Shown one piece after another: positions 11,022-14,884 of a DNA stretch of 64,000 nt; the stretch's first letter is position 1, and each line of letters begins with the position of its first letter. The notes under the pieces were generated by a model, which saw only the letters and a list, made by a program, of their open reading frames with translations, ran no database searches and was not told the DNA's origin. The stretch is from Planctomycetota bacterium. GTDB taxonomy: Bacteria > Planctomycetota > UBA8108 > UBA1146. The translations under genes were made by a program, and so were the position numbers. The stretch is taken from NCBI GenBank assembly GCA_032128395.1, contig JAQBGV010000194.1, positions 13,120-77,119 on the forward strand. Reading direction: 5' to 3'.

Positions 11022-12131
11022 ATGATGGGACGGCTGACCCCTGCAGCCGGGAGGCCACCCTTGCCCACACGCGTCTTCACCATCACCCCCGGGGGATTCG
11101 TCCCCGAGGATCTGGATGAGCCGGCGCGAATCCTCGCCGAGGGAGGGCTGGTCGGGATCCCCACCGAGACCGTGTACGGGATCGCAGCCCGGGCGGACGA
11201 TCCCGCCGCGATCGAGCGGCTGATCGAACTGAAGCAACGCCCCTCCTCGAAGCCGTTCAGCGTGCACATCGCGGACCCCGAGGACCTCACCCGGGTCATC
11301 GAAGAGATCCCCCCCGGAGCCCAGTCCCTGATGGACCACTTCTGGCCCGGTCCGCTGACGATCATCTTCCCGGGAGGCGACCGCGGGATCGGCATCCGTC
11401 TCCCCGCGCACCCGGTCGCGCGCGAGTTGATTCGTCGCAGCGGGGTCCAGATCGTGGCGCCGAGCGCGAACCCCATAGACCTGGAGCCCGCGATCGATGC
11501 TCAGGGAGTCCTGCGGTACTTCGAGGATCGGATCGACGCGGTGGTCGATGCCGGCCCCGTCACGATTCGTGAGGCATCGACCGTCGTGCGGCTCGAGTCG
11601 GACGGGCGGTTCGAGGTCCTCCGCGAGGGAATCATCACCTCTCGAATGGTCCACCGTGCACTCCGCGGGCGCGGGGTCCTGTTCGTCTGCACCGGGAACT
11701 CCTGCCGGAGCCCGATGGCGATGGCGCTCGCCCGCGAGTTGCTCTCGGCTCGACTCGGAGTTTCGATCGATGAGCTCCCGACTCGCGGATTTCAGATCGA
11801 GTCCGCGGGCATCGCCGCGTTCGGCGGGGGATGCGCCAGTTCGCAAGCAGTCGAGGTGATGTCGGAGCGGGGGATCGAGCTCGCCGGGCACCGTTCTCGC
11901 CCGGTCACGCGGGAGATGATCGAGCAGGCCGATCTGATCATCGCTCTCGGTCATGGGCATCGGGACCAGCTTCTCGCCTGGGATCCCTCGCTCGCCGACC
12001 GCGTGATGGTGATCTCCGAGACCGGAATCGCCGACCCGATCGGTGGCGACCTCGAAATCTACCGCCGCTGCGCCTTTGAGATCGAGCGAGAATTGGAAGC
12101 CCGCTGGATCGGGCGAATCGAGGAGCTATGA
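11022..12131 (+). CDS. TsaC/Sua5 (YrdC) threonylcarbamoyl-AMP synthase fused to a low-molecular-weight protein phosphatase
   Basis: N-terminal PTETVYGI, KQRP, FWPGPLT, APSAN. C-terminal VCTGNSCRS and IADPIGG. Confidence 0.9.
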   Translation: MMGRLTPAAGRPPLPTRVFTITPGGFVPEDLDEPARILAEGGLVGIPTETVYGIAARADDPAAIERLIELKQRPSSKPFSVHIADPEDLTRVIEEIPPGAQSLMDHFWPGPLTIIFPGGDRGIGIRLPAHPVARELIRRSGVQIVAPSANPIDLEPAIDAQGVLRYFEDRIDAVVDAGPVTIREASTVVRLESDGRFEVLREGIITSRMVHRALRGRGVLFVCTGNSCRSPMAMALARELLSARLGVSIDELPTRGFQIESAGIAAFGGGCASSQAVEVMSERGIELAGHRSRPVTREMIEQADLIIALGHGHRDQLLAWDPSLADRVMVISETGIADPIGGDLEIYRRCAFEIERELEARWIGRIEEL

Positions 12132-12562
12132 AGTCGCGCGCTTCGGTCGCTTCCGACCACGCCGGGATCGAGGGTCGGCGTGTCGCCGCCCGAATTCTCC
12201 GGGAACGTGGATACGACGTGGAGGAGATCGGCCCAGCCGAAGGAGAGTCCGTCGACTATCCGGACCTCGCACACCAAGTCGCCGAAAAGGTCGGGACGGG
12301 GGAGGCGGCGATCGGCGTACTCGTCTGCGGAACCGGCTTGGGGATGTCGATGGCGGCGAACCGGCATTCGGGGGTCCGCGCGGCGGTGATCACCGACCGA
12401 TTCACCGCGGAGATGTCTCGCGCCCACAACGACGCCAACATCGCCTGTTTCGGAGAGCGAGTGATCGGCGCGGACCAAATAGAAGTGCTGCTCCCGATCT
12501 TCTTGGATCGAGAGTTCGACGGCGAGCGACACCAAAGAAGAGTAGAGAAAATCGAGCCGTAG
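12128..12562 (+). CDS. rpiB: Ribose-5-phosphate isomerase B
   Basis: SDHAG, DYPD, CGTGLG, HNDAN and RHQRRV motifs. Confidence 0.95.
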   Translation: MKSRASVASDHAGIEGRRVAARILRERGYDVEEIGPAEGESVDYPDLAHQVAEKVGTGEAAIGVLVCGTGLGMSMAANRHSGVRAAVITDRFTAEMSRAHNDANIACFGERVIGADQIEVLLPIFLDREFDGERHQRRVEKIEP

Positions 12563-12568
12563 CCGGTG

Positions 12569-12885
12569 TCCCCAGCACAAAGATCCCCAGCACCAAGAGT
12601 GGGGAGGTGGTGCGTCTGTCGTGATGCGGAGTCGGGGCCGACCGGCGGCCACCCTACCGGGTCGTTGAGGATCGGACTCGGCTCCGCATCGCGGCAGACG
12701 GGCCGCCATCGCCGCTCCCCAGCACAAAGATCCCCAGCACAAAAGCTCCCAGCACCAAGAGTGGGGAGGGTGGTCCGTCTGTCGTGATGCGGAGTCGGGG
12801 CCGACCGGAGGCGACCCTACCGGGTCGTTGAGGATCGGACTCGGCTCCGCATCGCGGCAGACGGGCCGCCATCGCCGCTCCCCAC
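12569..12885. repeat. Tandem duplicated ~125-bp long-hairpin element with 15-bp TCCCCAGCACAAAGA-type repeats (REPIN/MITE-like or structured RNA)
   Basis: Near-identical copies at 12599-12721 and 12761-12885 (period 162 bp). 15-mers start at 12569, 12584, 12716, 12731 and 12746. Lies between convergent genes. Confidence 0.9.
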
Positions 12886-12889
12886 CTCC

Positions 12890-14710
12890 TTAGCCACCGT
12901 CCTCCACAGTGGGGTTCCAGAGGGGCTTGATCTGTGCCCGGCGCTCGAGCTCCACCCAGAATTGAGAAGCGATCGCCGTCCGCCGCCGATTGAGGACCCT
13001 CGACTCGAGCCCCTGGCGAACCGAGTTCCAGATCTTCATGTCGGGGTCCCCGAACCCCTGCAAGACCGCGACGTACACGCTCTGATCCCGGGGGAGCACC
13101 ACCGGCTCGGTGACGTCCCCGATCTCCTCGCAACCGGAGAACACCGCGCGGAGGAGTAGGGAGCCCGCGGCCAGCGGCTTGCCGTCGAGCAACAGCTCGC
13201 GGGACTCGTATTGGGAGAGGGGCTTCTCGGTCGAGTGGATCGTGTAGTTCTCCCCGTCCGCGAAGGTTTGCAGAGTCGTTTCGGGCTCGGCGCGGATCCT
13301 CTCGACCCAAGACCCGATGTACGCGGACGCCAGCTCCCGGGCCTTCTCGTTCTTCGCGTTCTCGGTGACCTGGACGATCGCCTCTTCGAAGGTCTGTGCG
13401 CGCGCCTCTTGCGCCCCACTGATCCGGTAGATGTAGCTTCCGGTCTGCACCGCGACCGTCTCGGTCCCCACCTGCCCGACGCTACCTGGGTCGAGCACGT
13501 TGAACATCCCGCTGAGCACGGGGTGGTTCACGAACTCCCGGGGGAGGGTGGTGATCTGCGATCTCTCGAACCACCCCGTGTCAGCGAAGATGATCTTGTC
13601 CATGTCCTCGGGGGTGAAGGAGTCCTCGAGCTTCCACTCCTCGCCGGAGGCGGCGAGTTCGCCGGCGCGAACGATCGCGGCCTCGAGGACCGCTTTCTCG
13701 CGCGCGATCGCGTCATCGTCACTCAACGACTTCTCCACGATCTCGAAGACTTCGATGAGGTTGCGATAGTCGTCCGCGGGATCGTAGTTCTCCGGCTTCA
13801 CCCAATCGGCAGCACGCGGCCTCTTGTAGCGTTGCTTGTCCCGCTCCCAGCGCGCCTGGAGAGCATCCGGGTCCGCCCGGAAATCAAGATCGTAGAACTT
13901 CTGGCGGTCGGCTCTCGCGATACGCAGACTCAGCGCCGCGTTCTTCCGGTAGGGGAACGGATTGTCGTCGTACACCGACCGGATGAATTCTTCGTCCATT
14001 TCGCCCGCCTCCTCGAGGAAGCGGTCGATCGGCACTTGCACGTAGTCGAAGCGGCGCCCGTGACGATCGGTGTAGAATTCGTCGTAGATCTCGCTCTCGG
14101 GGACGGCCGGGATCGTCGAAACGATCCGACCGAGCATCCCGACCCGAGCGATGGTGCGCACGGTATCCTCGAAATCGGCGACGCTCATCCGGAGTCCGAT
14201 CCGGCCCTCCGAGATCGCCTTGCGGTACTCGTCCTTGTTGAATCCGGCGCTCCCGCGCTCGGCGATGAATATCGACTGGTCCTGCTGGAAGTTGATGCCG
14301 GTGAACGTGGGCTTGTTGATCGCTCGCGCCCAGCTGATGACATCGAGTGCCGCAGAGCGGAGCGCCTCCTGCTCTTCCGCCTCCGAGAGTCGGAGGCCGA
14401 GGCGCTCGATCTCGTGGAGCTGCATGATGTATTCGAGAGCCTGCGGTTCCGTTGCCTTCGGCGGCCGGAAGTACGGGCCGTAGGACCGGGCCCCGTTCAC
14501 CATCGTCTGACGACCGCGCTCATCGCTCAGTTCGATGAACTTGGCTCGGGAGTAGTTGCTGCCGAAGATCTCGTACACCGCCTCGGCGTCGAGGCGTCCC
14601 TGGGTCAGGTACCAGGTCATGATCCCCGTGAACGCGAACGCAGGCGCGAGCACCAGGAGCAGAAGGGTCATGAGGACCTTCTCGTTGCGCTTGAAGAACC
14701 CGGCGGACAT
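12890..14710 (-). CDS. Membrane-anchored SurA/PpiD-like periplasmic chaperone
   Basis: N-terminal FFKRNEK plus TM helix, EIYDEFY...RRFDYV pattern, TFEEAIVQV...KARELA and VTEPV motifs typical of PpiD-like proteins. Similarity is weak. Confidence 0.6.
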   Translation of the reverse strand: MSAGFFKRNEKVLMTLLLLVLAPAFAFTGIMTWYLTQGRLDAEAVYEIFGSNYSRAKFIELSDERGRQTMVNGARSYGPYFRPPKATEPQALEYIMQLHEIERLGLRLSEAEEQEALRSAALDVISWARAINKPTFTGINFQQDQSIFIAERGSAGFNKDEYRKAISEGRIGLRMSVADFEDTVRTIARVGMLGRIVSTIPAVPESEIYDEFYTDRHGRRFDYVQVPIDRFLEEAGEMDEEFIRSVYDDNPFPYRKNAALSLRIARADRQKFYDLDFRADPDALQARWERDKQRYKRPRAADWVKPENYDPADDYRNLIEVFEIVEKSLSDDDAIAREKAVLEAAIVRAGELAASGEEWKLEDSFTPEDMDKIIFADTGWFERSQITTLPREFVNHPVLSGMFNVLDPGSVGQVGTETVAVQTGSYIYRISGAQEARAQTFEEAIVQVTENAKNEKARELASAYIGSWVERIRAEPETTLQTFADGENYTIHSTEKPLSQYESRELLLDGKPLAAGSLLLRAVFSGCEEIGDVTEPVVLPRDQSVYVAVLQGFGDPDMKIWNSVRQGLESRVLNRRRTAIASQFWVELERRAQIKPLWNPTVEDGG

Positions 14711-14729
14711 TTCATGCTCCTGTGTTCTT

Positions 14730-14884
14730 GGGGGCCTGGCAGGCACCCTCTCGTGTTATTGGGGGCCTGGCTCCCAGGCCCCTCTCACTCGCGGCAAAGC
14801 CGCTCGCGATTCACCCCAACGAGGCGAGCTCTGCTCGCGTGCTTGTCTTTGGGGGCCTGGCACCCAGGCCCCTCTCGCTCGCGG
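14730..14884. repeat. Cluster of REP-like palindromes GGGGGCCTGG-N3-CCAGGCCCCTCTC(G/A)CTCGCGG
   Basis: Full copies at 14761-14794 and 14851-14884, degenerate copy at 14730-14753, inverted copy at 28681-28713. Confidence 0.8.

Follow-up and report, generated by a model that had tools for sequence, protein, structure and literature searches.

A family of oriented intergenic hairpins with a conserved core in a Planctomycetota genome and in other phyla, a candidate ERIC-type mobile element

The window analysed here is a stretch of 64,000 nucleotides from a Planctomycetota bacterium (assembly GCA_032128395.1, contig JAQBGV010000194.1, positions 13,120 to 77,119 of the forward strand). It contains a tandem array of two hairpins (parts in Table 1), flanked by the rpiB stop codon at 12562 on one side and, on the other, by that of a 618-aa gene in convergent orientation, at 12890. 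The initial annotation had described this array as two 15-mers, a hairpin, three 15-mers and a second hairpin, and the coordinates agree with that layout. The hairpins are indeed nearly identical, being apart by three substitutions and one indel. The repeat has a spacing of 163 nt, and the third leader unit of the spacer between the hairpins is 16 nt long and diverged. Each hairpin is capped by an apical core that consists of a purine-rich internal loop, G-T pairs, a bulged A and a small stem-loop; the core of copy 1 carries two substitutions. The TAA stop of the 618-aa gene lies 9 nt beyond hairpin 2, and this stop is the anchor of the placement. No further family copies were found in the window with model R1, and no sigma-70 promoter or terminator pattern was found in 12400-13100. 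The window hairpins had no match in Rfam at gathering score, where only miRNA models appeared, far below threshold. Directly 5' of rpiB (11022-12131, + strand), a TsaC/Sua5-type threonylcarbamoyl-AMP synthase is fused to a low-molecular-weight phosphatase (YwlE/ArsC-like) domain.

Table 1. Features of the hairpin array and its flanking genes in the window.
Feature	Position	Strand	Basis or remark
rpiB, ribose-5-phosphate isomerase B	12128..12562	+	ORF; NF004051 and TIGR01120 above cut-off
Two 15-mers, an unpaired 5' leader, duplicated	12569-12583, 12584-12598	+	leader also on contigs C114 and C50
Hairpin copy 1, G-T strand on +	paired 12597-12717	+	folding; model R1, 93.9 bits
Apical core, copy 1	12640..12672	+	alignment
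Three leader units between the hairpins	12716-12761	+	within the 163-nt local tandem duplication
Hairpin copy 2, G-T strand on +	paired 12759-12880	+	folding; model R1, 119.5 bits (copy 2 is part of the R1 training set)
Apical core, copy 2	12803..12835	+	55 nt upstream of the convergent gene's stop
Group II intron site, empty in the window	12837..12838 (copy 2), 12674/12675 (copy 1)	+	intron ends in other copies
Convergent 618-aa gene, weakly PpiD/SurA-like	12890..14746	-	ORF; NF008054 E 3e-4, far below cut-off

Folding of both strands showed that the + strand folds better, both as RNA (z-scores of -9.1 and -10.9 for hairpins 1 and 2, against -3.0 and -5.6 on the - strand) and as DNA (-5.9 and -6.8, against -1.8 and -3.7). 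The main stem quoted in the initial annotation contains exactly four non-Watson-Crick pairs, each of them G-U on the + strand, and each window hairpin has nine G-U pairs in total. The proposed apical stem GCGACCC-TACC-GGGTCGT is perfect in copy 2, which is not the case in copy 1. GTGG and CCAC do not form the bounding pair that had been proposed; in both the minimum free energy structure and the alignment, the partner of the GAG start is an earlier CGCTC. Read-through from rpiB would carry the G-U strand.

The locus was compared with public contigs of three runs, all belonging to one study and possibly made from the source samples. In two of the runs, public contigs are identical to the stretch from rpiB to hairpin 1, which in the third run is split over two pieces; the junction between the hairpin end and the downstream gene is present in all three. 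Among the matches listed, copy-2-specific sequence occurs in one run at about half depth, and no contig of the three runs bridges the spacer of three 15-mers, a gap in cover that in itself proves nothing. Independent confirmation thus covers the element and not the tandem duplication.

BLAST and iterated nhmmer searches yielded 85 matches in the source genome, 37 of them near full length, which identifies a multi-copy, non-autonomous element. This count is a floor, because 41 of the 85 copies lie at most 400 nt from a contig end. The 29 copies that were aligned have a column identity of 71%, with 93.4% of cells paired and two-sided changes in 32 of the 49 pairs. None of 500 shuffles reached the observed pairing and covariation, a result that overstates significance and is not a probability as the aligned copies share descent; slid controls were 32-45% paired. 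(A further alignment, A2, had held reverse-strand matches and kept 76 of its 90 rows.) The internal loops are invariant, and the unvarying positions are concentrated around the apical loop and at a basal G-A mismatch. G-T pairs outnumber A-C pairs (155 vs 25), and in 30 of 31 intact copies the G-T strand is the better-folding one, both when treated as RNA and when treated as DNA. The array is thus neither a single locus nor one without covariation, and the covarying stems together with the strand-specific folding support the earlier proposal of selection on a single-stranded fold. Template-switch repair of palindromes could also yield covariation without selection.

The window copies belong to a subfamily that has paired sequence in place of the lower internal loops. 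The 15-mers, which had been suggested to be spacers for processing, are the leader of this subfamily and were amplified at two loci: there is one on contig C114, four on contig C50, and two and three in the window. Other subfamilies have amplified different end pieces. Decayed, truncated and intron-interrupted copies are common, with many 5'-truncated copies and end duplications. Among the 31 intact copies we found no conserved ends, and flanking inverted or direct repeats (terminal inverted repeats, TIRs, or target duplications) did not exceed permutation.

Placement relative to genes was investigated on a map of the source genome made from our own hexamer calls (3636 genes, 87.8% coding). 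None of the 70 copies found at E<=1e-6 overlaps a called gene. A convergent gene follows on the 3' side in 42 of 48 copies, and no bias is seen on the 5' side (18 vs 16). In 17 of 50 copies, 52-59 nt separate the end of the core from the stop. Where a stop lies at most 80 nt away, it is TAG in 13 cases, TGA in six and TAA in four, such that stops containing TA make up 17 of 23, against 40% genome-wide (p 0.002). The complete genome of Desulfosarcina alkanivorans (G328) shows the same placement, with a convergent 3'-side gene in 25 of 27 copies and a core-to-stop distance of 51-60 nt in 24 of 27. The TGA stops, which number 6 of 23 in the source genome and 8 of 24 in D. alkanivorans, are unexpected under a strict TA target, unless stops changed later. 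At cross-phylum loci with Pfam-confirmed neighbours, some of them redundant, close stops were found 24 times on the 3' side and eight times on the 5' side. No shared function was seen among the neighbour genes of the cross-phylum loci. The copies occur singly, among housekeeping genes. An RNA specific to rpiB, as had been considered, does not agree with this pattern: copies adjoin unrelated genes and are anchored on the stop of the convergent downstream gene.

This usual orientation places the G-T strand antisense to the gene whose stop it adjoins, so that the mRNA would carry the weaker A-C fold. The G-T strand is also the leading-strand template in 18 of 22 copies in the source genome and in 23 of 27 in D. 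alkanivorans, for which origin and terminus were estimated from 24 skew samples. Of the two orientations, that relative to the gene looks primary, because all four replication-strand exceptions in D. alkanivorans still face the gene backwards. Pairing of the closing stem with the gene's stop or last codons did not exceed permutation in D. alkanivorans.

The family is patchily distributed. By BLAST, the core is present in 4 of 40 relatives, and 24 genomes of the same family gave no match; the core pattern was found in 20 of 301 genomes of the phylum, with no match for the reversed control. Among the matches listed, the core pattern also occurs in Nitrospirota, Desulfobacterota and other phyla; of 80 such cross-phylum loci 65 passed the hairpin filter, two of these probably by chance. 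Elements of other phyla match model R1, which was trained on the source genome alone, with E-values of 1e-8 to 1e-18. An alignment of 46 elements from different phyla has a column identity of 46%, and its 14 invariant columns all fall inside the core, an invariance that is partly built in, as most of these elements were retrieved by the core pattern. No Rfam match was found over the elements at 16 other loci, and BLAST of plasmids with the element gave only three weak partial matches.

The ends behave differently from the interior. Young families of near-identical copies that bear TIRs, with (C)TAG or TAA ends, occur in four genomes (G026, G029, G030 and G215), and TIRs of relatives' elements match those of an IS1380 element (L330) and, more loosely, an IS5 element (L321). 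In G030 (127 matches) and at locus L045, the IS1380-like TIR surrounds inserts of many lengths (~40-160 nt), some of which are tandem arrays or have internal deletions. In D. alkanivorans the ends are specific to each locus and yet paired: the terminal 14-nt arms are 32% identical between copies, against 78% for the inner arm. In the source genome, none of the 85 copies lies near an IS1380-type TIR or the genome's own IS1182 TIR, and one of 85 lies near an IS5-like word. Taken over all its members, the family has a conserved interior, with ends that are absent, locus-specific or derived from different IS families. Some relatives of the hairpin family thus are TIR-bounded MITEs, like RUP or the NEMIS/Correia type, which are driven by DDE transposases; the family as such, with its interior kept and its ends exchangeable, is the reverse of a MITE.

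A classical MITE could nevertheless underlie the whole family. DDE transposases would then read the TIRs with the hairpin as passive cargo, the source-genome copies would be old remnants that have lost their TIRs, and the covariation would reflect successive subfamilies and palindrome repair. The TIR-bearing families of the relatives, their match to IS1380 and IS5 elements and the enrichment of TA-containing stops agree with this. In the source genome, though, TIRs are missing near the copies and flanking repeats are at permutation level, and the gap of ~6-13 nt between stem and stop leaves no room for eroded 20-nt TIRs. The locus-specific but paired ends in D. alkanivorans also argue against it, and passive cargo leaves a core that is invariant across phyla unexplained. 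We consider this explanation unlikely.

A host function at gene ends was considered with the help of a single orthologous site. In Nitrospiraceae, the element occupies the gap between pyrG and kdsA at 17 of 25 loci, and three of these copies are damaged. The other eight loci lack the element and have diverged too far for a target site to be recognised; no pairs of filled and empty sites close enough for this purpose were found. Ten aligned copies show more than one Watson-Crick type in 17 of 43 pairs, whereas the strand asymmetry is weak (33 G-T vs 10 A-C, with the core strand folding better in 6 of 10). Retention at this site is equally compatible with a host function and with earlier mobility. 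The elements may then be domesticated cis-elements at gene ends that spread by rare gene conversion and act as an mRNA-stability switch, as an antisense RNA or as a host-protein site at a fixed distance from the stop. Compensatory change at the retained pyrG-kdsA site and the fixed core-to-stop spacing in the source genome and D. alkanivorans are in line with such a role, as is the described effect of ERIC on transcript stability (PMC2229807, PMC10969869). On the other hand, the mRNA usually does not contain the strand that bears the motif, the distribution is patchy down to the complete absence from the same-family genomes in BLAST, damaged and intron-interrupted copies are common, and the neighbours lack a common function. 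Domestication is in our view still less likely than passive transport by TIRs.

In some copies the core is interrupted by a group II intron. In the source genome, 5/5 intron 5' ends (contigs C12, C16, C40, C71 and C148) and 3/3 intron 3' ends (C79, C113 and C237; loci include L354-L356) lie at one position of the core. All five assembled 5' ends come after the same eight bases, and the three 3' ends run on into the 3' arm of the hairpin and match RF00029 above threshold. The 111 nt compared at the 5' end are identical in four contigs, and the middle of the intron and its ORF are absent from the assembly. One further intron-core junction was found in a public contig of run X1. Intron and core have the same orientation, and the repeat provides the group II intron with a landing site that exists in many copies. 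This pattern of junctions was seen in one other of 400 genomes of the phylum. No relatives of the intron were found in viral contigs, and a metagenome match proved to be chance. Among 58 genomes of the class, one contained a relative, a 5' fragment behind a different short hairpin; this short fragment (L350:1452-1560, G028) has the small hairpin upstream and is apparently cut by an IS. Another group II intron of the source genome (L003:1-666, contig C206), a 3' part with an RT fragment, lies outside the hairpin. The domain V of the core-inserted intron starts with AGC, unlike that of IIC introns, which carries a CGC triad. Class IIC introns target hairpins, and like the hairpin family, their targets, attC sites and terminators, are multi-copy hairpins with a fixed landing site just 3' of the stem-loop, in the orientation opposite to the neighbouring gene (PMC7923331). 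In contrast to attC sites, the family shows no R''/R' boxes in the alignment, by eye, and forms no cassette arrays, its copies being single.

Alternatively, the family may be SINE-like, with RNA of the G-U strand copied by a reverse transcriptase, for example that of the intron, and inserted at gene 3' ends. The strand-specific fold, the fixed polarity without TIRs, the many 5'-truncated copies with end duplications and the intron lying in the same orientation inside the core would all suit such a mechanism. Target duplications at permutation level, the rarity of the junction pattern among the phylum's genomes and the scarcity of RT genes near the elements speak against it: among 112 neighbour ORFs of cross-phylum loci there is one RT, and its intron ends ~60 nt from the element. 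We therefore regard SINE-like spread as very unlikely. The complete-looking group II intron at L114:980-1400 has its 3' end ~60 nt from a Nitrospira-type element and lies on the strand opposite to the core.

Searches for a mobilising enzyme included Y1/RAYT and RT genes, for which the initial annotation had proposed to look nearby, and they revealed no mover. The 112 neighbour ORFs, which remained of 118 candidates after six were dropped as duplicates or likely chance loci, contain no transposase, and no element core was found near 28 transposase loci of relatives. In the source genome, partner searches covered Y1, RT, IS1182 and IS1380. They returned two weak Y1 matches, one RT fragment that belongs to another intron, and an IS1380-like gene on contig C226 for which no perfect 12-nt TIR was found. 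An IS1182 element on contig C12 was rejected as a partner, as it has its own TIRs and sits in a third repeat ~120 nt from a hairpin copy. This intact IS1182-family element (L073:1300-2945) has CTAG at both ends and lies inside a third short tandem hairpin repeat. Its TIR has 29 matches across the source genome, which suggests a separate MITE family.

The source genome has one RAYT-like gene (L001:1366-2145, contig C127; NF047646 E 5e-18, below cut-off). On its 3' side are REP-type doublets (~145 nt, inverted ends) of a second repeat that has 167 ends genome-wide; gene and second repeat are probably a REPIN-RAYT system. No nhmmer match of the hairpin family was found on the contig of the RAYT-like gene. 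The folding strand of the hairpins is mostly the leading-strand template, and Y1 elements have the opposite strand preference. The GTGG ends of the hairpins, which had been read as a link to RAYT-type REPs, are paired and variable among copies. That the hairpins are REPINs of this RAYT is thus highly improbable: the gene is present and 32 of the 167 second-repeat ends are no further than 150 nt from a hairpin copy, at times inside it, yet the sole RAYT-like gene is flanked by that different repeat, the hairpins have no unpaired conserved tetranucleotide and their strand placement is the wrong one for Y1. The family does resemble REP/REPIN sequences, which are described as intergenic palindromes near gene ends that form tandem arrays and are targets for other elements (PMC3733652), but it consists of one long hairpin in place of a 20-40-nt REP doublet and is without an unpaired GTAG/GTGG/CGTC foot.

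ERIC, also called IRU or RU-1, of enterobacteria is like the hairpin family in length, in its one long imperfect stem-loop and in its dispersal. ERIC has a short TIR and a TA duplication, and De Gregorio is said to have found in 2005 that it is oriented beside stop codons. ERIC sequences, which we retrieved via a published primer, fold with an apical stem that has a G-T closure and a GA/GA loop, and the strand with the purine loop folds better; at one ERIC locus a convergent stop lies 56 nt beyond the purine loop. By sequence, ERIC does not appear as a homologue: covariance model R1 had no match at nine loci and R2 none at three, and the profile HMM gave 0.1-0.5 bits, a score that 2-9 of 200 shuffles reached. 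A 2008 review characterises ERIC as a stem-loop repeat of 127 bp that ends in TA and affects mRNA in a manner that depends on its orientation, and holds that, as of that date, mobilisation by a transposase was without experimental support for ERIC- and RPE-type palindromes (PMC2229807). The hairpin family shares with ERIC the single imperfect stem-loop of ~125 nt, the many intergenic copies and the orientation beside stops, but is GC-rich and belongs to other phyla, and its copies in the source genome are without TA termini, TIR and TA duplication. By analogy, the family may work like ERIC. YPAL or RU-2 of Yersinia (168 bp) is a long palindrome beside gene ends without TA ends (PMC2229807); YPAL has duplications of 3-26 bp, none of which were seen in the source-genome copies, and the RU-2 sequence as given in PMC2759123 is, by eye, without the core.

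A core that is one pair shorter was found at 22 viral-contig loci, which represent ten distinct contexts. These short-core types comprise an element with an RPE1 domain, an enterobacterial repeat of ~131 nt and one more type; model R2 ranks the short-core types other than the RPE1 element at E-values of 0.002-0.13. The RPE1-domain element (L218; TIGR01045 E 7e-14) contains both core halves, one base pair shorter; it was retrieved by a core-based pattern, which means that the shared core words are not an independent test. This one element scored 15 bits with R1 (E 0.14) and 12 bits with R2 (E 0.67), its profile score lies within that of shuffles, and it matches the ~131-nt repeat of E. coli via the core alone. 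At L218:910-1602 it lies in frame with the C-terminus of a gene on a phage-like or GTA-like contig. RPE-1, the Rickettsia palindromic element, inserts in frame within genes, unlike the hairpin family and its 70 intergenic copies. The enterobacterial repeat, which may be the one named RSA, occurs at several places in E. coli chromosomes. On many plasmids (H17-H28), efflux transporter genes are annotated such that their end overlaps this short-core repeat. We found no published account of the hairpin family or of a core common to ERIC and RPE in a mostly open literature without supplements, where repeat catalogues of the type of PMC3372372 could contain the family.

Taken together, these comparisons make it on balance likely that the hairpins are an ERIC-type, non-autonomous mobile element whose folded core, and not its ends, is recognised and moved in trans. 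The trans-acting enzyme likely recognises the single strand in its folded form and not the sequences at the termini. Compensatory changes would arise because variants with an intact fold are the ones to spread or persist. Insertion would favour stop codons that contain TA, and the orientation may have the effect that a strong fold is absent from the mRNA directly downstream of a ribosome that terminates, and for the most part from the lagging-strand template as well. The naked hairpin of ~125 nt would be the old form, which in some lineages may have become enclosed by IS1380- or IS5-like ends and then multiplied anew in the manner of a classical MITE. The tandem in the window may have arisen by local slippage between the leader and the similar 3' end of the element. 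That there is a mover, that a single-stranded step is involved and why the orientation is biased are inferences from these patterns.

A broader reading of this ERIC-type element is tentative, and we would not call it probable. One ancient core, with a GA/GA-type internal loop, a G-T closure and a bulged A, may unite ERIC, RPE-1, the enterobacterial ~131-nt repeat and many undescribed families as a superfamily. One factor would then read this core and place it ~55 nt behind stops on the template strand, whatever the ends, and IS ends and the group II intron would be secondary.

Small mobile DNA of the ERIC kind, to which the hairpin family likely belongs in kind, is already known. To it the present analysis adds a core that several phyla share and that has exchangeable ends, the match of these ends to IS1380 and IS5, and the group II intron site. 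In this family the variables of ERIC- and RPE-type elements can be separated: the interior is invariant, the ends are absent, locus-specific or borrowed from IS elements, and the distance to the stop is fixed. The 33-nt core may serve as bait for pull-downs, and D. alkanivorans, a cultured host with a complete genome and 27 pattern-matching copies, offers a system for transcript and mobility tests.
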